DNA from: Jimgerdemannia flammicorona
Lineage: Eukaryota
DNA length: 32,914 nt
NCBI GenBank assembly: GCA_003990765.1
Contig: RBNJ01000329.1
Location: 1 to 32,914 of the forward strand
Reading direction: 5' to 3'
The notes below the pieces were generated by a model, which made no database searches, was not told where the DNA came from, and saw nothing but the letters and a program-made list of their open reading frames with translations. Every line of letters begins with the position of its first letter. Position 1 is the stretch's first letter. This document shows, piece by piece, positions 1 through 23,550 of the stretch. The translations under genes and the position numbers were made by a program.

Positions 1-126
1 GACACGGGGTTATTGGTGTTTTATCACGAAGATTGACATCACGTGAGCGTAGCGTAGTTGACATTATGCAATACGTAGTATAGTTACGCCTCCCTAGCGT
101 AGATCGACATTACGGCAAAAACATTG

Positions 127-1249
127 ACGTGCTATACTGAGCCTCAATTCTCGGTCCATTTAGTAAATTGAATTAGATGGAGGTATGGAGCGAGTAGAGA
201 TCACTGTTAGATCGAGCGAAAATCCCTTGATGAAATATTTTCAACCTACGTCGAGACGTCGAGACATTGAGATCCTAAAGTGTTAGGGCAGAATTCGTAA
301 GGCGGAAATGTTTAAATAAATTTTTTTTGGTTGTATACCAATCGAATTCGGTCATTCCGGCAGCACCCGTTGGAACTCCGTCAAAGTTCTTATTCGTTTG
401 TAACTTTCTCAAACGGTGAAAACCTTTGAAACCGTGACGTTTGAGCAACAAACCATGTTTCGTACGACTGTGGCTAGCCCTTTACCGCTATTACATTTTG
501 GAAATGCTTGCCAAATATCATAATGCGCTCCGATAGCCAATGCTTCAGATCTATGAAGGACAGAAAACCAGTAATAAATGCTAGTTTTCGAGTACTCGGT
601 GGAAAAGAGCGAATCGTATTGTCCCAAAGAGAAGTCAATTTCCCGAGGATTTGATGCGGTCGACTCAAAAAGATCTATTATGGGCGCCAGCTAGAGATTC
701 GCTTGGAGGTCTTTGGTGTTCGCATCGAGGGCCGGAAGTTTGAGTTCTAGTTTTGATGTTCACTTTGTGGTCTCGGGTTTTTTAATTACTCTTGATGGCC
801 CAAATGAAAAACTGTGTGTATTTCTGGCCTTTTTTTGGCAAAAGATAGCACATTAAAATACATGGAAGCAAGCTGAATGGTGGTATCCGGTTAGAGACTT
901 TTCTGACTGTGACTGCATTCCGAAGGAAATCCTGTCAAAAAAAGAATTGGCTTTCTATGAGCTTTGATTTATTTTTTGACTGGTATTTCCTAGGAACCCC
1001 TTTTAAAGACTGGAAAAAGGATGCTGTGCGAAGCAAATGGTATTCCATGGGCCCTTGTTTGAGTTTTGTAAACCTATTTGTCCTGCAAACAGCAGCTTTT
1101 TAATTTTCTTGAAAAAGGAGATATGAATAGCGATCATAAATTTGGATAACTGCCGGGTTCCGTCGGGTTTTCTCGATGCCTCGCTTTTCGCTCAATTTTT
1201 TATGTGAAAAAAATATTTTACACAAAAAAGAGAGAGAGAATACAGTAGT
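127..1249 (+). other. rDNA upstream region / 5' external transcribed spacer, copy 1
   Basis: Colinear with 31153-32322 (starts acgtgcta..gcctcaattctcggtccat in both) and directly precedes an 18S 5' end. Many substitutions and indels between the copies; CpGs retained. Confidence 0.85.
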
Positions 1250-1359
1250 TACCTGGTTGATCCCGCCAGTAGTCATATGCTTGTCTCAAAGATTAAGCCA
1301 TGCATGTCTAAGTATAAACAACTTTATACTGTGAAACTGCGAATGGCTCATTAAATCAG
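1250..1359 (+). pseudogene. Truncated 18S rRNA gene (first 110 nt only)
   Basis: tacctggttgatcccgccagtagtcatatgcttgtctcaaag...cattaaatcag; identical to 32323-32432 except T>C at 1264. Homology stops abruptly after 1359. Confidence 0.95.
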
Positions 1360-1416
1360 GTAATACCGGACGCGATAGTGCAAAATTTGGGGCGCACCCG
1401 TTGAATCTATCATTCC

Positions 1417-1590
1417 GAGTAGTGACCCACCCTCAACATTTGTTCTCCCATCCTCAACAAAATGTTAAGGGTGGGTCACTAGCTCAGTCTTCGATTTATG
1501 AGGCTTTCTATATATCTAGCAATTACGAACAGATTGGAGATTAACCAAATTTCCACCCTCAACATTTTCCGGGTGGTTTGTTGAGGGTGG
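1417..1590. repeat. Two inverted-repeat hairpins built from a CCACCCTCAACA motif
   Basis: gagtagtgacccaccctcaacatttgtt (1417-1444) pairs with aacaaaatgttaagggtgggtcactagctc (1456-1485). ccaccctcaaca (1553-1564) pairs with tgttgagggtgg (1579-1590). A further partial copy lies near 1716-1726. Confidence 0.85.
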
Positions 1591-2099
1591 GACACAGGCT
1601 CAGGCTTTTTTGATTAGTCCGGAGCTGTCACCTGGCCAGCATTATTCCTTCCGATATCATATATATCTAGCAAAATATAGCTCTGTAACTATGTGGAGAG
1701 ATAATTAATGCACAATTGAGGGTGGGCTAAAATCATGGTGACGCGTGAACACAAGTGGTCTCTTAACCATGGATTTACGCCCAAGATGCAAGGTTCTTTT
1801 GCATAAATAAATGTTGTGTTCAGTGACATTAGTTTGTTGGATGTAATGACTTTCCAATCGAGTGAGAAAACAGTATGATACCGGTTTGGCTGGGGTGGTT
1901 GAATGGTGGTCTTAGGGATTTTTGGAGGGTGAATGGGGAAGAAGAATACAAAGGCGCAAACGTAACATTCAAACGACACCAGCAGGAAAATTGGAATCAA
2001 GTTTTGATTGACGACACTTGATCACGTATACAACACAATCTTTATTCGTTACTTGGCAAAGCTACGCAACAACGATGTCACTCACCACCGGAAGCCAGT

Positions 2100-3199
2100 T
2101 CATGAAACGGTACGAAAAATGTATGTACACGTTCCACCTACATAGTTATACGTATGATATGACCTTTGGTCGAACGCCTTATATTCCCAATTGCCATTGC
2201 TAAAAACGGGTGTCACCATATACAAAATCTCAGGGTCCACCGCCCCGATCTCCACGATTCCTTTCATTATCAAGGAATAGTGGACTTCGTCGGCGTCATT
2301 GATGACCTGAAGCGCCCGACTAGTCAGAGAAACGCTGCGCATCCCTTGAATGGTCAAAGATAGAAAGATATGATGCGAAGTAACATACCTCGCGAAAAGC
2401 AGACGATCGGCGATGTCGTAGATAAAGGCGGCGATGTAGTAGATAAGGTTCATGATGTCGTAGATAAGCTCGACGATCTGGTAAAGAATGCCGTCTGGGT
2501 AAATATCCTCTGGCCGACTACGATATAAGTTGGCTGCGGCTTCTTCAGAGATATTGTAGACTGATTGACGAACATAGAATAACTTAGTACTATCTGGCAA
2601 AATTTGAATACTTGGCGACACAAACGATCTGCTCACCTTTGGCTATCAAACGGTTGTGTTTCACCACGGGATCGTCGTCGCTTCCCGGAATGTGGCGAAC
2701 TATAGGAAATTTGAGCGCAGCGGCTTCTTCGGAGATATTATAGACTAATTGAAGAACATAGAATAACTTAGCACTATCTGGTGAAATTTGAATACGTGGC
2801 GACAAACGACCTGCTCACATTTGGCGAAATAGCGATTGATTTTATCTTCGTCGCTTCCCGGAATGTAGGGACCTAAGAAAAGAGGGCATTTAGCACTAGG
2901 CTTTGCTACTCCTACGATAGAAAAGGAAAAAAAAGCTAACAGCATACAAGTAGCAGGCGGCTTAGCGGTGGGTTCTTCCAAGCGCCTACTTGGTATGTCG
3001 TTCAGGTCGTCCAGGTTGCCGTTCAGGTCGCCGTTCTGACCTAAAGAAAAGAGGGCATTTAGCCCTAGGCTTTGCTACTCTTAGGATAGAGAAGGAATAA
3101 TAAGGCCGACGGCATACAAATGGCGGGAGGCTTGACGGCGGACTTTCCCAAGAGGCTTGGAGAGTTGTTCAAGCTGTTGTTCTGGCTGTGGTTCGACAT
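2100..3199 (-). CDS. Intron-containing hypothetical protein, ~247 aa, 6 exons (3199-3118, 3040-2948, 2872-2819, 2744-2637, 2560-2389, 2334-2100)
   Basis: Introns of 77, 75, 74, 76 and 54 nt with GTATG/GTGAG donors, CTAA/TGAC-type branch sites and YAG acceptors. Splicing gives one open frame MSNHSQNN...KPPAICQNG...KPPATCPYIPGSD...FYNISEEAAA...VYNISEEAAA...IFRTVS*. The 54-nt intron is in frame and may be retained. Confidence 0.8.
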
Positions 3200-3289
3200 T
3201 GTGGAGAATTATATAGAAGAGGCATATACCACGTCGAATGTTTATAATGACTGTGCGTTTATGAAAAATTATATAGCTGACTGACCTTT

Positions 3290-4474
3290 AATGTGGCTTG
3301 TACACGTGACCCTCAACATCATCTCTTGGATATGTTATTCGGGTCTACATCACTGATCTTGACATATAAAAGCATGCTTAGAAAATAATAATAATAATAA
3401 TATAAAAGCATGCTCTACTCAAATCAATTAAACAATCAGTCCTTTTACAGTAATTCTGCAACACAATATATCTAATATATATCTACAATACTATATTACA
3501 GCTGCTAACAATAGAAGATATAAATATTTGTTTAGGATTATAAAGTAAAATATATTTTCTTGAATAACCAAATTCTCAGTCAGTCTATTGCAGAATAATT
3601 TTCTATTAATAAATATGTTATAGGGTGGCTAATTAAAGAATATATGTATCTATTAATATTAAATAAGACAGTAATATCTATATTATTTAAATTATCTAAT
3701 AGGATGTCAGTTGTTGATAATTGGTTAGGTTCTGTATCTCTCAACATATACTGATCATTAATCAAAGACCAATATGTGAGAGAATTATAAGTTTCATTAA
3801 AGATAGGATATAATATAGAAGAATGTGATTATATTAAGATTGAAGATGAAATCTCATCTATATGCAAATAATCTGAAGACTGAATTGCAAATATTAATAG
3901 AGATAAAGGTGGTAATATTATACAGATCAGTAGTATTAGAGACTGAAGTCTCATGCACATGTTGCTGCTCTTACAAGATATCAGTTAGCTTTTTAGTAAT
4001 AATATAATTCTTTTCTTCCTCAACTATAAAAGTGGAATTATAGATAAAGATATAAGAGAAGAGATAATATTTGATCATCATTATTTTTTCTATATAAATG
4101 GATACCTAATGTATAATACTACAAAGTTCAAATATATAATTGCTAACTGATTGCAAAAATATTAACTATTAAAAAACTATTTTATAAAGCAAAAATTCAA
4201 AATATAATAAGCCAATTAGATCTCATTAGCAGATAGTATTTTAAGCTAACCAAATTTCAGAAATCTAGAGATTGCTTTCTATATAATTTATACTTTTTAC
4301 ATCTTAATAATGTGGCTTATATATATGACCCTTGATAATATTTTATAGTTATATCATTTGGATCTATCTTATTGATCTTGACAAATAAAAACACATTCTA
4401 CTTAAATCAATAAATATAAATTTTCATTAACAAATATTTTATTTAATAAATATGATTTTAGTATTTATATAAAT
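3290..4474. repeat. AT-rich dispersed repeat family (host sequence of the TE nest)
   Basis: Block ~3290-3430 recurs at ~4308-4415 and ~12088-12195. Block ~3610-4055 recurs at ~11055-11340 and ~12250-12640. Block ~4110-4280 matches the ~300-bp tandem unit. Confidence 0.8.
3364..3414 (+). mobile_element. 21-bp (TAA)n-tail micro-insertion with 15-bp target-site duplication
   Basis: atataaaagcatgct at 3364-3378 and 3400-3414 flanks tagaaaataataataataata; absent from the paralogous blocks at ~4380 and ~12160. Confidence 0.55.
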
Positions 4475-5402: not shown

Positions 5403-8400
5403 CTAGTTATAATACTTCTTGAGTTGGTTTCAGTGAGTAGTAATAGAGATGATTGTGTCTGAGAGTTTTCATAGCCAAAAGGTGATCTTTTTTATATCTT
5501 GCACCAGGTAAGGTCTCTCCTACTTAGGCTTCAGTTTTTATGACCATAAAGCTTCTACCATATTCTGATACACCAGGACTTTGTCTCCTATCTTGATAAT
5601 CTCTAGGGGCTTGTGAACTTTTTCCACATTATTCCATTGTAGTGTCTGTGCCTTGGTTATATAATCTTCAGCCTTTTTCCTGATTTAGTGTAGTCTCTGT
5701 ATCTCTCTATCTATACATTTCCATACAGTATCTCTATTAGATAATATGGTATCTTGAGAACCTTTTTCTCTGAACAGCATTTCTCAAGAGGTGAAATAGA
5801 TACTTTGTGATTGAATATCCTGGAGAGCAGATAATGCTATTGGCAGATAGTGATCCCAGTTTTCATAATTATCACAGATCTTAGCAATAACATTTTTGAG
5901 GGTCTTGTTGGTTCTTTCTGCCTGTCTATTTTCTTGGAGATGGTATGCTGTGGTCTGAATGTACTAGATCTTGTACTTCTTGTAGGGAACCTTAAAGAAC
6001 TGGTTCATGAATTCTGTTCCTCTATCTGTGGTTACTTGTGTTGGGGTCTTGAACTAGCAGATGATTTCTCTGTGAAAGAAATTAGTAATTGACTGTGCAT
6101 TGGCTTCCTTGAGGGTTCCTGCCTCTATCTATTTCATGAAAAGGTCTACAATAACAATAATATATCAGTTACCAGTCAAAGTCAAAGGTAGAGGACCAAT
6201 CACATCCTTGCAATGTAGGCAAATGGTACTGGTTCTATATGTGCTAATTGTGGGGCTTGGTTTCATTAGTCTTGTTTCTGCTTCTGACATTTGTTATAGG
6301 TCTTGACAAATCATCTGATATCTTCTTCCATTCCTGGCTATCATATTGTTCTTCTTGCTTTATCATATGTGTTTGTTCCTTCCAGATGGCCAAGTTTGTA
6401 TACTGATTTCATTACTTGGTCCTTCTTGTGTTCTGGTATAACTAGTAGTTTTCCTTTCTTCAATATTTCTCTATTGGTTTTGAATTGTTTCTATGTTCTG
6501 TTGATAATCATTTGTATCCATTCTTTCAGATGTTGGGACATCTTTTGCTGTCCCAGATAGGTGATCATTCTGTAGTAAAGCTCTTTATTTATGATTAGTT
6601 TGTTGGTTGGGGGTCCTTTGGGGTATCTATGAGAGGGTATCTGTATTTACAATGATTCTTCCTGGGCAGTGTACAATGGTTACATCATATGCTTGCAACT
6701 TCATGATCTATCTGGCATAGATTCCTTTGGGTTGTCCAGTGGTCAGTAGCTAGGTGAGGGCTGAGTGATCTGTCTAAATGGTGAAGTGTCTTCCAGTGAG
6801 GTAGTAGTGGAACTTTTCTATAGCCCAAATAACTGCTAGACATTCCAACTTATAGGATTCATATTCTTTTTCAGCTCCTTGGGTTCCTCAACTTAGGTAT
6901 ACAATGACATACTCCACTTTGTCTTTCTTTTGAGCTAGGACTACTCCTAGCCCTTAGGTGCTTGTATCTGTCTGCAGGATAAATTCTTGAGTCCAATTGG
7001 GTCTTCTGAGGATGAGTGCCTGGATCCGTCTGACCTTGAGTTCTTTGAATGCTTTCTATTGCCTGCTAGTCCATTGGAACTTGATATTCTTCTTATTGAG
7101 TTCATAGATTGGGTCTGCGATGTTAGAGAATTCTCTAATGAATCAGTAGTAATATGAGGCAAGTCCCATGAAGGCTTGGGCTTCAGTGACTGTGGTGGGC
7201 CTTGGGTATGCTGCTACTGCTTAAATCTTGAGGGGGTCTGTGTGTGTTCCATCTTAATTAATAATATGGCCAAGATAGATAATCTCAATTTCTGTAAATT
7301 TGCACTTCTTGGACTTGATGTAAAGGCCATGCTATCTCAACTTTTTCATCATCTACTGGATATACTGCAGATGTTCTTCAGCTATCTTACTGTAGATGAT
7401 AATATCATCCACATAAACCATTATCCATCTTCCCATGTCATAGTGGAAGATTTTATTCATCATTTGCTAAAAGCTTGCAGGGGCATTACACATTCCAAAT
7501 AACATTCACAGGTAGATATAGGTTCCATCTGGAGTGATGAAGGCTGATTTCTCACTTGCTATTTCTGTGAGTCCAATGTAGTGGAATCCTGAGTATAGAT
7601 CCAAGGTGCTGTAGTACTGTACTTCATCTCCCAGAGTTATAAGGATGTCATTGATAAGGGGCAGTAGTTGGCAATTCTTCTTAGTGACTACATTAAGCTT
7701 TCTATAATCAATACAGAGTCTTGGTGCAAATTCTCCAGACTTGCTTTCTTCTTTGGAGCTAGTACAACTAGTGAAGACCAGGGGCTGCTGGCTTCCTTGA
7801 TGATACTGGCTTCTTCTATCTGCTTGATTTCTTCTCTGAGCTATTCTTAGTAGGCTAGCAGGATATTCTTGAATTTATAGAGTATTTTCTTGAGTTCCAT
7901 CTTGAGTGAGAATTTATCTCCAATAGTATAGCTGTGCTTGTTCATAGTTTCCTCCTTCTTGTGCTGTAGCTCAGTGATCTTTATACTGGCAAATACTCCT
8001 CTTCCTGTAGATCTGAATCCTTTCCTTCCTCTTCCTGTTTCCTCCAACTTCTTGACTTCTATAATTCTTGGCTGAAGGACTGGGAAGATCAACATCTGTG
8101 CTAGTTAATCCTTCTTCTTAATTGGAAATGGAATTGTAGGGTTGTGGTTCCTAGCAATAAGTAGTATTTCTCCAATATAATCAGAATCAATGACTTCTCC
8201 TTCAATTGTGATTTTGCTCTTAGCAAGACTGCTTCTTGTCTTGAGGAATCCGACATGGCCTTTTGGAATGGTCATCTCCAGACCAGTTGTGAGTAGGGTG
8301 ATTGTCTGGGATTCTAGTATAGTTTCTTCCACTGTGGCAATATCCATTCCAGCTGCATTTTCTGACTTGTATTCTGACAAGACTGCATCAGGGTGAATCT

Positions 8401-10495
8401 TCCAAATCTTGATCTTGATTTCTTCTTCATCATCACTATCTTTGAGGAGAGCTGGTGGTTTGTCATCCTCTTCCTCTGCTTCTTCCATTCTCTTTTCTTC
8501 TCTTGCCTGTTTCTTGAGGGCTTTCTCTCTTCTTTGGTAGTGGATCTTCTTGATTTTGCCAGTGCACTGGTAACACTCATTGATATGCTCCATACAGTAC
8601 ATTCAGATCCCATGGGGACAGACTTCTTGTGGTGCATATTCTTCTATAATATTCTTGCACCAGTCTTCTTTGCTCATTCATCTAATCTTCTTCTTCTTTT
8701 TCTGGGTTGTCATTATATAGGCCTCCTCTTGCTCACTCTCTTCTTCCTCTATCTCAGGCAGGACTCCTTTATTGACATTGATCAGAATTCGTATCTTCTG
8801 TCCACAGTAGATGATCTGGATCTTCTGGGCATTTAGATCAATTATTGCCTTGGCTTTGTGAAGTCATTGATTGCCAATAAGGATATCATAGTTGGTTGCA
8901 TTAATCATGATTATATTTACTAGAATGGTTGCTCTTCCAAACTTGATGGAAATATCTCAGATCTTTCCCAGAGATGTGGCTCTTGTGCCATCTGCTGTGA
9001 CAAATACCAATTTAATTGCTTCTTCAACTTCCCAATCTAGGCAGTCTGCTGCTTTCTTGCTGAGAAGGCACCCTCCTGCTCCTGTATCAATAATAGCCTC
9101 AAACACTCTATATATCTTTGATTTGACAGGTTACATAGGCAGAGGTCTTGCAGTTGTCTTCACTTTCTTCTCCTGAGTCTTCTTGAACATTTTTGGCCTT
9201 GGTTATCTTCTAACCTTGCTCCTTAGTTATCTTAGCAAGTCCATATCTCATTTGCTGTCTGAATGTGGGTATTTCTGCCAACTGGCCAAAGGTGGCATTG
9301 ATCTTTTGTTGACTGAGATCCTTGAAGATATCATACTTGAAGGTCTTGGTTTTGTGAAGCTTTTTCTCCTTTTCTCCTTCACTAGCTGTAGTGGTTCCTC
9401 AAATAATATCTTGAACAGTCTGTTCTAACTCCATATCTTGATCTATTTCTTCACCTTGACTTTCTGTAGTAGTCTCCATTTGCTTTTCCACAGGGTTCTT
9501 CTTGGGTCTCCCTGGTGGTCTCTTATAGGGTTCTTTGTAGATATTCTTTTTGGTGGTCTGTACAGAATAGGCCTCCCATTCTTCTTCATCTGATTCTCTG
9601 ATTTCTTTAAAGGTGATGATGTTGACCTGTTTCTTATTTTGAGTTGCATTACTTGGCTGGGCCTTGCACTTGGTTTTGCTCATACATTTATATGAGTAGT
9701 GGCCTTCTTCTCTACAGGTATAGCAGATATCTCTCTTCTTGTCTGAGGTGGTGGTGAATTTCTGAATTGGTTGGCAGTTTCTTCCTTTAATTTCTTTTAC
9801 TATATCTCCTAGGTGAGCTGTTATTTTGGTGAACCTCTTGGCAAGTTCCTCCATGGGGTCACTATTTCTCTATTGCTTGGTAGCTCTTGGTTGAGGTGTG
9901 TTTTAATTGATTACTATAGTAGGGATTATGCTAGTTGCCTTGGGTGCTTCAATTCTGACTCTAGTGACTCTCTCTATTGTATGGTCTTATAGATGTCTGG
10001 CAATCTAGTATTGCTAAGCATAGGTGATCTTCTGTGCTAGATCAAGAACTATTAGTAATAAATGAATGGCCAGGGCTATCTCTTAGTGGATTCCTTTTAT
10101 GAAGATTACTTCAGCTACTTGATCTCTAATAGGGGTAGTATAATCTATAAAGATTATCTGATATTAGATTCTAGTGTAGAATGTGTTGAGATCCTCACTC
10201 ATTCCTTGGCATGTTGTGTTGAGCTGATCTTTTAGTGCCTGCTTGATCTCATCTGTGTAGTATGTGGCTCAGAGCCAGGTCTTCTGTGCTACTAGATAGC
10301 ATCATCATCATTTTCTATATGGGTTGCCACTGTGAATGCTGCTCTTGCTGATTCTTACAGACTAAATAGTATGAGAGTTACTTGCTGTCTTGCTGTCAGG
10401 CCCCTTATAGTAGTATATTGCTCAAAATCATCAATGAAGATAATAATTGATTTATCTGAAGTATAGCCATAGAATACTGGTGGTCTCATATTCAT
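5403..10495 (-). pseudogene. gag-pol of element A (many premature stops)
   Basis: Gag start MNMRPPVFYG; zinc knuckle CYTCREEGHYSYKC (~9683-9724); protease IIDTGAG (~9075-9095); RT YVDD (~7405-7416); RNase H; integrase DVIGPLP and TDRGTEF; C-terminal IKIGDKVLV domain. Confidence 0.93.
8003..8415 (-). pseudogene. dut: dUTPase domain of element A
   Basis: Trimeric dUTPase motifs AAGMDI, KTRSSLA, GEVIDSDYIGEI, LAQM, RGRKGFRSTG; one internal stop. Confidence 0.92.
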
Positions 10496-13717: not shown

Positions 13718-13997
13718 ACTTAGTATCTATTGGCTGGTAATTTAAGATGAATTTTCACTTTTAAGCTGAAAAATGAATAACTGCTATACAGACCATCATG
13801 TTGTATATAGTATTTGTCTGTACTATCTGCTGTTAATTAGTTGTTCTGATTGTCAGCCTCATTTCTATAAACCATTAGTATTGAATAATAGACATTCTAG
13901 AAGAATATATTATTGAGTTAATAGCTGGGTCACTCTTTAGTTTGAGAGATAATATTATAAAAATTAATTGCCAAAAACACTGAACAAACCATCATGC

Positions 13998-14365
13998 TGA
14001 ATAGATCACTGTATGGACCACTACTACTCAATTTTGAAGAAGATGAAGAGACCACTATATAGACCACTATGATCTGATTTTGAAGATGATGAATGGACTG
14101 CTATATGGACTACTGCCACTTGATTTTGAAGAAGATGAACAGACTGCTGTATGGACCACTGCTATCTGATTTTGAAGATGACAAATAGACTGCTGTACAG
14201 ACCACTGCTACTTAATTTTAAAGAAAATAAACATACCACTGTATGGATTACTGCTATCTGATTTTGAAGATGATGAATAGACTGCTGTATAGACCACTGA
14301 TACCTGATTTTGAAGAAGATGAATGAACCACTATATAGACCACTATTACCTGAATTTTGAAGATA
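13998..14365. repeat. Minisatellite, 8 x 46 bp
   Basis: Unit like tgaatagactgctgtatggaccactgctatctgattttgaagatga; flanked by a ~160-bp direct repeat (~13823-13980, ~14379-14535). Confidence 0.92.
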
Positions 14366-16058
14366 TTGTTTATTTATGCTATCTACTGTTAATTGGTTGT
14401 TCTGATTACTAGCCTCATTTCTGTAAATCATCAGTATTGAACAATAGATACTCTGGAAGAATATATTATTGAGTTAATAGCTAGATTGCTTTTTAGTTCA
14501 AGGGATAACATTATAAAAATTAATCACTGAAAATGCCAAATAATGACCATACAAAGAACTACTATAGAGAAAAGAAGATACAAACTATTGTCTGACTTTT
14601 GATGATATACAAACTACCATTACTTATTAAAGATACCATACAAAGCTATCATCTAACTCTTGATAATATATAAATAGACTGCTATGAAGAATAAAAGAAA
14701 TGAACCAATGCCTAAGTTAATTATTTGAAGAACACTACTCATTATACAACTGTTAAGCTTCAGATATCTAGAGATTGAATTTTATATAATTAAATATAAA
14801 TATTGTAGAGAAATTAAAAACTATTACTAGATTTAATATTATTAATATATATATATAAGTGAAATTAATATAATTATTTCTTTAGGTATCATATATATTT
14901 AGTAAAATATAGCTATTTAATATATGTACAATATTATAAAGCTCAAATATATTATTACTGACAGATTATAGAGAGATTAATTATTGAAAAGATATTTTAT
15001 AAAGCAAAATTTCAAAATATAATAAGCTGATCATAGATAGTATTTTACACTAACTAAATTTCAGAAATCTAAAAAGAAAATAAAAATTAATCACTAGATT
15101 TAATATAATTAATATATATGGAAGCAAAATTAATGTGCTCTGATCAATATTATTCCTTCAGATATTATATATTTAATAAAATATAGCTTTGTAATTATGT
15201 AGAGAAATATCTAATATATTTTACTACAGAGCTTAAAATATGTAATTACTGATAGATTATAGAGGAATTAACTATTAAAATAATATTTTATAAAGTAAAA
15301 TTTCAAAATATCATGAGCTGATCAGATCTTATTAGTAGATAGTATTTTACACTAATTAAATTTCAGTAATATATTTTAGAGAAAATTAAACCTTGTCACT
15401 AGAATAATTAATATATATATAAGTGAAATTAATATACTCTGAGCAATATTATTCCTTTAGATATAATATATATTTAGCAAAATATAACTTTGTAAATATG
15501 TAGAGAAAAATTTAATATATAATACTACAGAGCTTAAAATATATAATTGCTAATTGATTGTAGAGGAATTAACTATTAAAATAATATTTTATAAAGTAAA
15601 ATTTCAAGATATAATGAGCTGATAATATCTCATTGATAGAAAGTATTTCACACTAACCAAATTTCAGAAATCTCAAAATTATATTCTAGTAATATATTTT
15701 AGAGAAATTAAACCCTGTTACTAGAATAATTAATATGTATGAAAGTGAAATTAATATACTCTGACCAATATTATTCCTTCAGATATAATATATATTTAGC
15801 AAAATATAACTCTGTAAATATGTAGAGAAATATTTAATATATAATACTATAGAGCTTAAAATATATAATTACTAATAGATTATAAAGGAATTAATTATTG
15901 AAATAATATTTTATAAAGTAAAATTTCAAGATATAATGGACTGATCAGATCTCATTAGTAGATAGTATTTCACACTAACCAAATTTCAGAAATCTCGAGA
16001 TTATATTCTAGTAATATATTTTAAAGAAATTAAACCCTATTACTAAAATAATTAATAT

Positions 16059-17599
16059 TATCACATAGTGGTCACTGAGTCCTTCAAATATGTTAGATTC
16101 TCTTCAAGGTGTATCTCTTAGACTAACTCAAGTTTGTTATAAGCAAGTTCTTATTGGAGTACCTTCCCAAAGTCTTATAGTCCTCAAACTTCTTATCTTT
16201 AAACTGTCTAGTTATCTCTTTAGATTACTCATAAGAAATTGTATATAAGTGAACTTGACTGACATTATTTTGAAGAAAATAAGAGGAATATTTATATAAA
16301 ATATAATTCAATGGTTGCTAAGATATAAAGCTAAATATAAATTCCAATAATCAAATAAAATACTGGAATACAGAAAATTGCCAAGTTCTAGTATTGACAC
16401 AGATGGTTGCAGCACAGGTTCAGAATACTGGTATAATTTTGGTAATACAGGAAAAGGGTGCTGGAATAATTCTTAGTTATATATATAAGATCAGAATGCC
16501 AGTAGAGGAATAGATGTTATACAGGAAAAGAATGCCAGCATAATTCAGTATAACTAAGAGACTTAGAGTAGAATATTCAAGACCACGGATGCTTCATCCT
16601 CATCATCGCTGAAGGAGATGAGATCTGTGAATGTTTCATCACATGTTTTGTATATGTCGCACAGGATGACGTCATCGCTGATGATGTCATCACATTTGGC
16701 AGTGGGGCTCTTCAATCTATAAGATTCTCTTTCACAAAATAAGGGACAAATGTGGGGTCTTGGGGAGGTCTAACCTGGATACTTGGGCCTTGGAATATTG
16801 AGATCAATCCTTGCAGGAATTGATCTGGATTGTCCTGGAGAATGGGATACCAGAAGTCTTCTACTTCATCACTATTGAAGGTGATAGTGGACTGAGCTTC
16901 TGTAGCCACCCTGGCTACTAGTGCATTGATATGGCAGGCTGACAGATCTCTGAAGTCTGAGACTCTAATATACTCCAAGTTGAGGATTGACCATAGTATA
17001 TGCCTGAAGATCTGATGAATCTTCTTAGCTATCCTTATTTTATATATCTATGGAAGTGGTATCTTATAGCTCTTGAGGGCTGGCTTGAGGGAATTTCTGG
17101 CAGAGGAGGTTTTCTATTTCATATTCTTATTATATCTGGAGGCATTTAGTAGCAATGGTGATTTTTGTTTCTATCTCACAGTAGTAGAGGATATAATAAT
17201 AAGAGTCATTAGTATCCAGGTTGAGACTAGGAGTCCTTCTTATATGGATCCTCATGGCTCTTCTGATGTCTTGGAACATCCTTTCTTCAACTGAGGGGTC
17301 TTGGTAGTTCCTTGATCTTGAGGTTTGGTGAGCAGTAGGTATTTTATTTGTAGTAAATCTTTGAGCTATTTTGGTATTGGTGGATCTTATTGAGTTGCTG
17401 CTACTGCAGTTCCTTGATCCTTCTTTTATATTCCTCAAGATGCCTGTACTGTGGTCACAATGACTCATAGTTAGTCATTATTGCTCATCTTGTATTTTGG
17501 GTGAGTTATGCCATATGATCTTCTTATACTCCGATCTGGTAGCTTACAAGGAATTACTGTCTCTTGTGCTGATATCATCATTCTGAGGTCACTGTTACA
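16059..17599 (-). mobile_element. Element D: 1541-bp solo-LTR-like insertion containing an ORF
   Basis: On the minus strand starts TGTAAC and ends TGTGA(T)A (mutated CA). 4-bp TSD ATAT (16055-16058 / 17600-17603). The host tandem unit is restored on removal. Confidence 0.75.
16712..17468 (-). pseudogene. ORF3-like gene inside element D (stops, one frameshift near 17045)
   Basis: ...ERMFQDIRRAMRIH...QI**EYEIENLL...RIAKKIHQIFRHILWSILNLEYIRVSDFRDLS...ENLID*. Start codon uncertain (17468, or a mutated ATG at ~17342). Confidence 0.6.
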
Positions 17600-21687: not shown

Positions 21688-23139
21688 GACACATTCAGTT
21701 CTCTATCCCAAAGGCTGTTATTACTGAAGCTGTCATCTATGATATAATTCTTAGCACCAACTGGATGAAGAAAATGAATGCAGTTGTCAATATCAGATAA
21801 CAAGTACTCAAGTTTGACTACTGAGATAAGAAGTACAGAGTCAAGGTGACCAGCTATGAGCAATTAAAGAAGAAGAAGGTCACTATCTAGAAAGAATATG
21901 CTAGTAGCAAAGAGTCTACCACAGAGGAGAAAGAAGAATCTGAAGATGAAAATGATCCCAGACTCAATCCCAGGATCAACCTAGTGGATTACAGACCAGA
22001 AGACAATGTATGGGCCAAGAACACTGTCCCCATTACCATTAAAGCCATTACAGGAGAAATCAAAGGATGCCCCACCTGCCTCAAGAGACACAAGTGCTCC
22101 AAGCACTCCTCCAAGATCATTGGAACAAGGAATTTGTCTGGCACAGCCTGCCCAGAGTGCAGAAAGAAGAAGAAATACAGACATATTCCAGAAATACCTG
22201 CAGCTGAAGCTGCAGAAGTATAAGCAATTTGGGGTCAAGAAGTATCTGAGGAAGAAGAAGCTCCTGACCAAGAAGTTTCTGAACAAGAAGCACCCAAAGA
22301 AGAAGAAATCCCCAAACTCATTCCCTGGGATGACTCTCACTGGATACTACCTGAAGATGATGACTCTTGGAATATTGAAGAAGGATCCAGTATAATCTCC
22401 ATTATTCCAAAGAAAGAAATATACCAAGAAAAAGCTTTTTAGCTAGGAAGATATCCACACCAAATGATCTTCCACTCTCCCTGAGACTACTGCTATCAGT
22501 GCCATCTATTAGACCAATAAGAGAGACAGAGACCCCAGAGACCAGAACTCTCAAATACAGTTGCACAGTCAACTATCTTCCAAAAAGTTACCACTAAGTT
22601 GCAAAGTTGATTTAAAGGACAAGGTCTCTTTACCTGAATAGAAGTATACCTCTTATCCACTCTTTCTCCAACTTATGACCAAGATGAATACCAATTCCTA
22701 AGACAATAAGAAATCAACAACTGAGAACATCATTTCCAAGCAATGGAATATTGTAACCATAGAAGACACCCAGACTACTGAGACTGCAGACATCAGAAGA
22801 TTCACCTTAGTCATGATGTTGCAATTCACACCTTAAATAGAGGAGACAACAGAGGCCAGATCCGAAAAAGCCAGACCAAGAAGCCAGGAAGAAGGACTCT
22901 CAAGATCTATGATTTAGGAGAAGACATTCTAGCTCTTATTAGACATACAACCCACTAAGGAAGGGTAGAGAATGCCACCATCTTCATAGAAGCCATAGAC
23001 CCTATAGGAAGAAGAGGAATTAACTATCTCCAAGACCCCTCTACTGGAGCCAGATGGCCACACCTCAACCTCAGAGCCTAGAGGCTCTCTGCTAGTAGAG
23101 CCTCAGCCCAAGGACAGCTCAAACTCAGCAAGAATGTTG

Positions 23140-23550
23140 CCCAGTATGCCCTACTACATCCCAAGGCCAAACCCCTGACCAAAGCCCACCCAGAAGATGT
23201 AGGATATGATCTTCACAGTCTGGAGGATGAATCCATTAAGCCTGGAAAAATATTCATGATCAGAACCAGACTAGCCATACAATCACCCCAAGGAACTTAC
23301 ATTCAACTGACCTCAAGGTCTGGACTTGCCAGACAAGGAATAACCATAGAAGGAGGAACTATTGACCCAGGATATATATGTAGGTGAAATCAAGGTCATC
23401 CTATACAACAGTAGTACTGAATGGCACCAAATCATTAGAGGACAAAAGATTGCCCAAGCAGTCTTCATGAAGGTCAAGACCCCACAGTTACAAGAAGTTT
23501 CCAAACTAACTGAAGGAACAAGGTAAGCCAAAGGATTCAGAAGCTCAGAT
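23140..23550 (+). pseudogene. dut: dUTPase domain of element B
   Basis: DVGYDL, TSRSGLA, GGTIDPGY(frameshift)GEIKV, KIAQ, R*AKGFRSSD. Confidence 0.92.

Follow-up and report, generated by a model that had tools for sequence, protein, structure and literature searches.

A truncated rDNA head upstream of an 18S rRNA gene in Jimgerdemannia flammicorona, probably the relic of a second rDNA unit

Textbooks illustrate concerted evolution with ribosomal DNA (rDNA), and the fungal exception known to us is the arbuscular mycorrhizal group. A contig of Jimgerdemannia flammicorona, 32,914 bp in length and analysed complete (hereafter the window), carries two heads of rDNA units with different spacers; the left one breaks off inside its 18S rRNA gene, and the right end of the contig falls within the 18S of the second. 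The question raised by this locus is what the broken head represents: a remnant of a former unit, a product of the assembly, a duplicated fragment, the margin of an array, or a stub that is still transcribed.

Extent of the two rDNA heads

A MAFFT alignment of the stretches 100-1420 and 31120-32500, together with a blastn self-comparison of the window, yields one collinear, same-strand match between 127-1359 and 31153-32432, in agreement with the preliminary description, which had reported a second rDNA head in the same orientation. The left copy consists of 1.1 kb of upstream spacer and 5'ETS (127-1249, plus strand), a variant of the right upstream spacer and 5'ETS (31153-32322, plus strand), followed by nucleotides 1-110 of the 18S (1250-1359, plus strand). 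The right 18S rRNA gene occupies 32323-32914 on the plus strand (Rfam model positions 1-593) and runs off the contig end. In the blastn alignment the match extends over 127-1362 and 31153-32435, with 85.8% identity over 1312 columns, gaps included. The 18S homology of the left copy stops after ...AAATCAG, at the 1359/1360 breakpoint, and unrelated sequence follows; identity is 43% past 1359 and 41% ahead of 127, i.e. at chance level. The separation of 31 kb given previously is that of the two starts (about 31.03-31.07 kb), while the actual gap between the copies measures 29,793 nt (1360-31152).

Screening against Rfam at the gathering score returned a single rRNA match, the right 18S (32323-32914, 619.5 bits, E 8e-185), the 3' end of which is cut by the window. 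Relaxing the threshold to E<=1 added one signal only, a 23.6-bit trace on the left 18S stub. No 5.8S, 28S or remaining 18S was detected across 1360-31152 at either setting, as had been stated earlier for the 5.8S and 28S. Two structural explanations of the interruption were discarded: (i) an 18S split by an intron or by an rDNA-specific mobile element, since no 18S beyond nt 110 occurs before 32323, and (ii) a mobile element starting at 1360, since none of the 25 longest inverted pairs listed, out of 95, is a terminal inverted repeat that starts there. A second copy of 1360-1631 was not found in the window by blastn, and only 1632-1709 is repeated.

The left flank of the stub (1-126, plus strand), which begins at the contig start, is unrelated to the flank of the right unit. 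Homology between the two was ruled out, because local alignment of 1-126 with 30653-31152 gave a score of 22, the level of shuffled sequence (200 shuffles, mean 21.1, sd 3.3). The motif T[TC]GAC[AG]T is present in this region in four same-strand copies, at 33, 58, 104 and 124, the last of which overlaps the start of the shared region; the window contains 13 matches of it, 4 of them in the first 130 nt and 6 in the first 262 nt. The clustered copies may be spacer sub-repeats. Their position suggests, on the basis of 126 nt, that the left copy may extend upstream as native spacer, and that the left edge of the shared region would be the cut point of the right unit.

The left rDNA unit is incomplete only given a correct assembly of the contig, and the 1359/1360 junction rests on one short-read-era contig. 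If the contig had been mis-joined at this point, the left variant would head a complete second unit. Each contig end is close to or within rDNA (the left head starts 126 nt after position 1, and the contig stops within the right 18S at position 32914), and the last 95 nt ahead of the break are identical in both copies, so that an assembler could have switched paths there. A graph assembler, however, makes such a join only from reads or k-mers that themselves run from 18S into non-18S sequence, so that a truncated 18S end is probably present at some place in the genome. It also speaks against a mis-join that a change private to the left copy, at a conserved base, is situated 95 nt before the break, a span coverable by ordinary single reads, and that the annotated gene downstream sits on the same record. 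An assembly artefact is accordingly regarded as an unlikely origin of the stub.

Divergence of spacer and 18S sequence

Alignment of the left spacer/ETS (127-1249) with its right counterpart comprises 983 matching and 117 mismatching positions, together with 93 gap columns that form 21 separate events. The ungapped identity between the copies is 89.4%, which corresponds to a divergence of 10.6% plus indels, and the many substitutions and indels noticed at first inspection are thereby quantified. Four stretches of 10-12 nt found on the right have no counterpart in the left copy; with two copies and no outgroup, the substitutions and indels are unpolarised and these missing stretches are not callable as deletions. 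A search of metagenome contigs for relatives of the ETS, by an exact 24-mer from the best-conserved ETS block and an exact 24-mer across the ETS/18S boundary, gave 0 matches.

The 18S part is almost unchanged. Left 1250-1359 corresponds to right 32323-32432 and to Rfam SSU positions 1-110, and direct reading shows 109 of 110 nucleotides to be identical, which agrees with the single change reported before (the MAFFT count of 108 matches, 1 mismatch and 1 gap column results from gap placement at the junction). The sole difference, C1264 versus T32337, is found at 18S nt 15. This nucleotide belongs to the helix 1 loop, and the Rfam consensus prints it in upper case, the mark of a highly conserved position. 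A change at such a conserved loop base is expected in a copy free of selection.

The differences between the copies are balanced, with 58 transitions versus 60 transversions, and A or T on the left faces G or C on the right at 41 sites, the reverse being the case at 40 (binomial p=1.0). The two copies have 42 CpGs in common, 8 are left-only and 7 right-only. CpG o/e amounts to 1.07 in the left copy and 1.02 in the right copy, versus 0.28 for the whole window, and the CpGs of the stub are intact, as previously observed. A RIP-like or cytosine-hypermutation bias between the copies, checked as an excess of C-to-T/G-to-A changes and as AT enrichment, is absent. The C-to-T process that stripped the intervening block has left both copies untouched, and, judged from these patterns, neither looks like a mutated partner of the other.

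Mismatches in the spacer are distributed unevenly, from 1 to 23 per 100 nt (chi-square 66.9, 10 df, p=1.7e-10). The best-conserved parts are the first 100 nt (97/100 identical) and 527-926, where the copies are 94-99% alike; the least-conserved parts are 227-426 and 1027-1226, with 77-84%. The 43 mismatches in 194 aligned positions of 1027-1226 are plain substitutions, not slippage. A separate feature of the spacer is an 18-nt unit (CTTTC.CAAACGGTGAAAA-like), of which the right spacer (31399-31476) has more copies than the left one (396-437), i.e. a copy-number difference of a spacer sub-repeat.

It had been proposed that the spacers diverged while both were working units and that truncation came later. 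The stub has changed far less than the spacer average (1/109 versus 117/1100, Fisher p=2.5e-4; Poisson P=1e-4, or 0.02 if the stub lineage alone was free to change). So few 18S changes beside a strongly mosaic spacer indicate that most of the divergence is older than the loss of constraint on the 18S part, and to this extent the proposal gains support; under it, the break would be comparatively young. On the other hand, when the conserved spacer blocks (15/395) serve as the reference, the stub shows no significant deficit of changes (Poisson P=0.08; 0.39 if one lineage was free), and the mosaic, although expected from shared constraint, would also be yielded by patchy gene conversion. Compensatory changes were looked for by folding each ETS copy alone under three span limits and checking the predicted pairs on the other copy with 2000 permutations. 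Compensatory double changes in the ETS numbered 0-3 versus about 1.5 expected, none above chance, and hence give no positive sign of both spacers evolving as working pre-rRNA. Of the pairs predicted for the right ETS, as many are broken in the left copy as chance would give (P=0.18-0.49), and those predicted for the left ETS are kept in the right copy slightly above chance (P 0.01-0.05). In these fold predictions the asymmetry is no more than a hint, and it points to decay of the left copy. Divergence followed by truncation would be the most economical order of events, although the sequences do not force it.

The same figures bear on another origin, in which the head alone was copied by segmental duplication and never formed a working unit, its 18S and conserved blocks being kept by gene conversion and its variable blocks drifting or slipping. 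A mosaic of near-identical and very divergent blocks is the pattern of patchy conversion, the stub does not exceed the conserved blocks significantly in similarity (P=0.08-0.39), the ETS shows no compensatory changes above chance, and the divergent blocks include repeat-number changes, e.g. in the 18-nt unit of 31399-31476. This origin nevertheless demands that both ends be arbitrary, whereas the motif cluster of the left flank suggests that native spacer continues upstream; moreover, some highly divergent blocks (1027-1226, 43/194) are made up of plain substitutions and not of slippage. A duplication of the head by itself is consequently judged improbable.

Surroundings of the two heads

The contig falls into three sharp compartments, with CpG-normal islands on both sides of a 26.5-kb nearly CpG-free block. 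CpG o/e is 0.58-1.52 in 1-3500 and 0.50-1.33 in 30001-32914; in 3501-30000 there are 0-5 CpGs per 500 nt (o/e 0.00-0.23, about 31 CpGs in 26.5 kb), and TpG+CpA is raised. The block (3501-30000) is rich in retrotransposons: 8 of 21 ORFs tested match the Pfam families RVT_1, RT_RNaseH, Integrase_H2C2, zf-CCHC or dUTPase, and long inverted arms are located at 6298-8477 and 27822-30096. Comparison of the repeat at 1632-1716 with its copies at 15439-15523 and 15761-15845 shows G/C-to-A/T differences in the block copies, in 15 of 18 and 13 of 14 cases respectively, with 0 in the reverse direction, a pattern in keeping with directional cytosine hypermutation of the repeats within the block. Intact CpGs are common to all non-transposon DNA here; in the stub they indicate that this process did not act on it as on a repeat, and they are no proof of activity.

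Two further observations concern the block itself. A dUTPase domain is found in three retroelement remnants, 8108-8602 (minus strand), 23082-23384 (plus strand) and 27709-28191 (plus strand), with E values of 1e-10 to 1e-14, adjoining pieces of reverse transcriptase, RNase H and integrase; its presence in all three indicates that the element family encodes its own dUTPase. The AT-rich block also contains tandem arrays, namely 7 copies with a 46-nt period at 13954-14403 and about 3 copies of a unit of about 300 nt at 15082-16004, with a fourth at 17570.

The upstream edge of the right unit abuts a frameshifted protein-kinase pseudogene fragment (30814-31152, minus strand), which covers profile positions of about 42-166 out of 270 and is cut on its N-terminal side at the rDNA boundary. 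A 62-aa piece of it has 12 protein matches, of which 11 carry PF07714/PF00069, with up to 85% identity. The kinase profile built from 11 of the 12 (P0010 was left out) and run on all 1732 six-frame pieces of the window identified only four collinear pieces in three frames at 31200-30814, corresponding to positions 42-74, 72-93, 92-102 and 119-166. The first 41 profile positions are without counterpart, and the kinase similarity ends no more than about 15 nt away from the start of the rDNA. Sequence search of the PDB with the 62-aa piece gave weak matches (best E 0.038), 23 of 25 being kinases, and two other pieces had no matches there. Since the kinase homology is cut at the boundary, foreign DNA adjoins the right unit too, starting 1.17 kb ahead of the 18S, and the 5' edge of this unit likewise looks like a rearrangement junction.

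The gene at 2100-3199 was considered as the missing N-terminal half of this kinase or as its paralogue. The idea of a split kinase derived from resemblances by eye and weak tblastn matches (E 0.18 to 5), and was rejected as the profile finds nothing in 1-3400 at E<=10. Further downstream of the pseudogene, 30009-30742 on the minus strand has a leucine-rich-repeat look by eye, without confirmation from Pfam.

Broken units at the ends of rDNA arrays are known in other organisms, and the right unit could be the first of an ordinary tandem array, with the stub as a broken partial unit near the array edge. The right unit runs off the contig, and without the retrotransposon block the two CpG-normal islands would be only a few kb apart. 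Three points weigh against an array: (i) the 5' edge of the right unit lies 1.17 kb from its 18S, in the kinase pseudogene; (ii) a spacer difference of more than 10% is unusual next to a homogenised array; (iii) a preprint estimates about 2 rDNA copies for J. flammicorona by read depth, a Rhizophagus-like low number (10.1101/2020.05.14.095489). An ordinary array at the right end is possible, though we hold it to be rather doubtful.

On the downstream side of the break, a strong hairpin with 22-nt arms, 95% complementary, is located at 1420-1481. A second hairpin (about 1551-1595), recovered from the inverted-repeat list and the fold, contains the same CCACCCTCAAC motif and is followed by a T6 run at 1606-1611, the whole occupying 1551-1611. 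The predicted fold of 1340-1740 has an MFE of -125.9 kcal/mol (z -4.26), and 0 of 100 shuffles were as stable. A copy of the dispersed repeat family D4 follows at 1632-1716 on the plus strand, its other copies being situated at 14.8-17.7 kb in the AT-rich block. Further downstream, a multi-exon gene for a hypothetical protein (P0013; 2100-3199, minus strand) is convergent with the stub. It has short GT..AG introns, an annotated product of 139 aa, a stop at 2100 and no Pfam family, and it includes tandem exon-plus-intron duplications of about 80% identity (2533-2702 with 2717-2875, and 2870-2982 with 3038-3152). In the public 139-aa model the middle exons are left out. The sole relative found is a partial J. 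flammicorona protein with another locus-tag prefix and 57% identity. Among 13 short ORF pieces around both heads, Pfam found nothing beyond one stray match (E 0.21).

It had also been suggested that the stub might still be transcribed by Pol I into the downstream hairpins and antisense to this gene. The geometry required for antisense read-through is indeed present, the gene being on the minus strand, convergent and with its stop at 2100, and a stub transcript, if made and unterminated, would enter 2100-3199 antisense. In such a case a working Pol I promoter would produce a short RNA of ETS and 18S head, which could run into the hairpins and the antisense strand or soak up early processing factors. 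At its start, the shared region is identical at 97 of 100 positions, and the end of the ETS is also preserved; CpG o/e is about 1 in an island spared by a mutation process acting 2 kb away; the convergent gene lies 740 nt from the break. Against this stand the two stable hairpins and the T6 run between the stub and the gene, and the fact that intact CpGs are the default of all non-transposon DNA in the window. From the sequence, an active stub is judged very improbable.

A relic of a second unit and its comparison with known systems

We find it somewhat more probable than not that 127-1359 is a truncated relic, i.e. an orphon or pseudogene fragment, of another rDNA unit. This source unit would have borne a spacer variant of its own, and the relic would keep its upstream spacer, 5'ETS and 18S nt 1-110, with 18S nt 111 onward lost by rearrangement or deletion. 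The other end of the deletion would lie in hairpin-rich, repeat-related DNA, and the sequence after the break, hairpin-rich (z -4.26) and with a dispersed-repeat copy, is a plausible fragile site. The stub could then survive without need of function in a CpG-normal, apparently unsilenced island, and its 110 nt of 18S would presumably be unable to make a ribosome. The homology with its sharp ends, the pattern of divergence, the lack of other rDNA in the window and the compositional setting are direct observations; in this account we infer the order of events, the deletion mechanism and the inertness of the stub. The conservation of the first 100 nt (97/100) and the intact CpGs weigh against a relic and would also suit an active stub. 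The readings partly overlap, and both a nearby array edge and an active stub are compatible with a relic. A source unit with its own spacer variant implies that the rDNA units of J. flammicorona are not well homogenised.

Solitary rDNA fragments, known as orphons, have long been recognised as solitary members of tandem gene families that lie scattered over the genome, a concept reportedly described by Childs et al. in 1981. The left copy shows homology to part of an rDNA unit, and the rest of the unit is not adjacent to it. Like rDNA orphons, it is a partial piece away from a complete unit, cut inside the coding region and changed at a conserved base. In contrast to orphons, it keeps the whole upstream spacer/ETS with intact CpGs and lies 30 kb from a unit of the same orientation, and in its spacer it represents a variant of its own, not a degraded version of the neighbouring one. 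The left copy is most likely genomic debris of a known kind, and a truncated rDNA fragment alone is common debris. The new structural facts are the joining of non-rDNA 1.17 kb upstream of an 18S, a second spacer variant that is more than 10% different, and a unit broken inside its 18S. Their value is as evidence of fragmented, heterogeneous rDNA in Endogonales, outside a short-spacer array at least on the visible side. Heterogeneous units and dead heads carrying the universal 5' sequence of the 18S could also contribute to practical trouble. No publications on this locus were found in the literature on Jimgerdemannia rDNA or under the species name, and the preprint 10.1101/2020.05.14.095489 states that public J. 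flammicorona assemblies could not show rDNA structure.

The comparison with Rhizophagus irregularis made in the preliminary description is apt. In the sections on its rDNA, Maeda et al. 2018 (PMC6123716) describe ten or 11 complete units, none of them tandem and heterogeneous in sequence; they also point out that direct repeats are liable to be deleted through single-strand annealing, and describe neighbouring Rhizophagus units as inverted. Like Rhizophagus, as portrayed there, the present contig has an rDNA unit flanked by non-rDNA and within-genome differences between units, and a low copy number is reported for the species. Over the 31 kb upstream of the right unit there is no rRNA coding sequence beyond the stub, the 5' edge abuts the kinase pseudogene, and the downstream side is off the contig. 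The differences between units are seen in the spacer/ETS, the coding difference being 1/110 and in the dead copy. Unlike the complete and, where nearby, inverted units of that account, one of the copies here amounts to a stub of 1.2 kb, and both heads point the same way, as direct repeats. Rhizophagus belongs to Glomeromycotina, whereas J. flammicorona is placed in Endogonales. In the present contig, heterogeneity is shown for the spacer only. It is tentatively conceivable, at less than even chances, that J. flammicorona, a plant symbiont, has dropped a tandem homogenised array in favour of a few scattered, Rhizophagus-like units with different spacers, the stub being a left-over of their turnover. 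If so, this contig would offer the first structural view of scattered rDNA in Endogonales, and concerted rDNA evolution would have been lost either before the split of Glomeromycotina and Mucoromycotina or twice in plant-symbiotic lineages.
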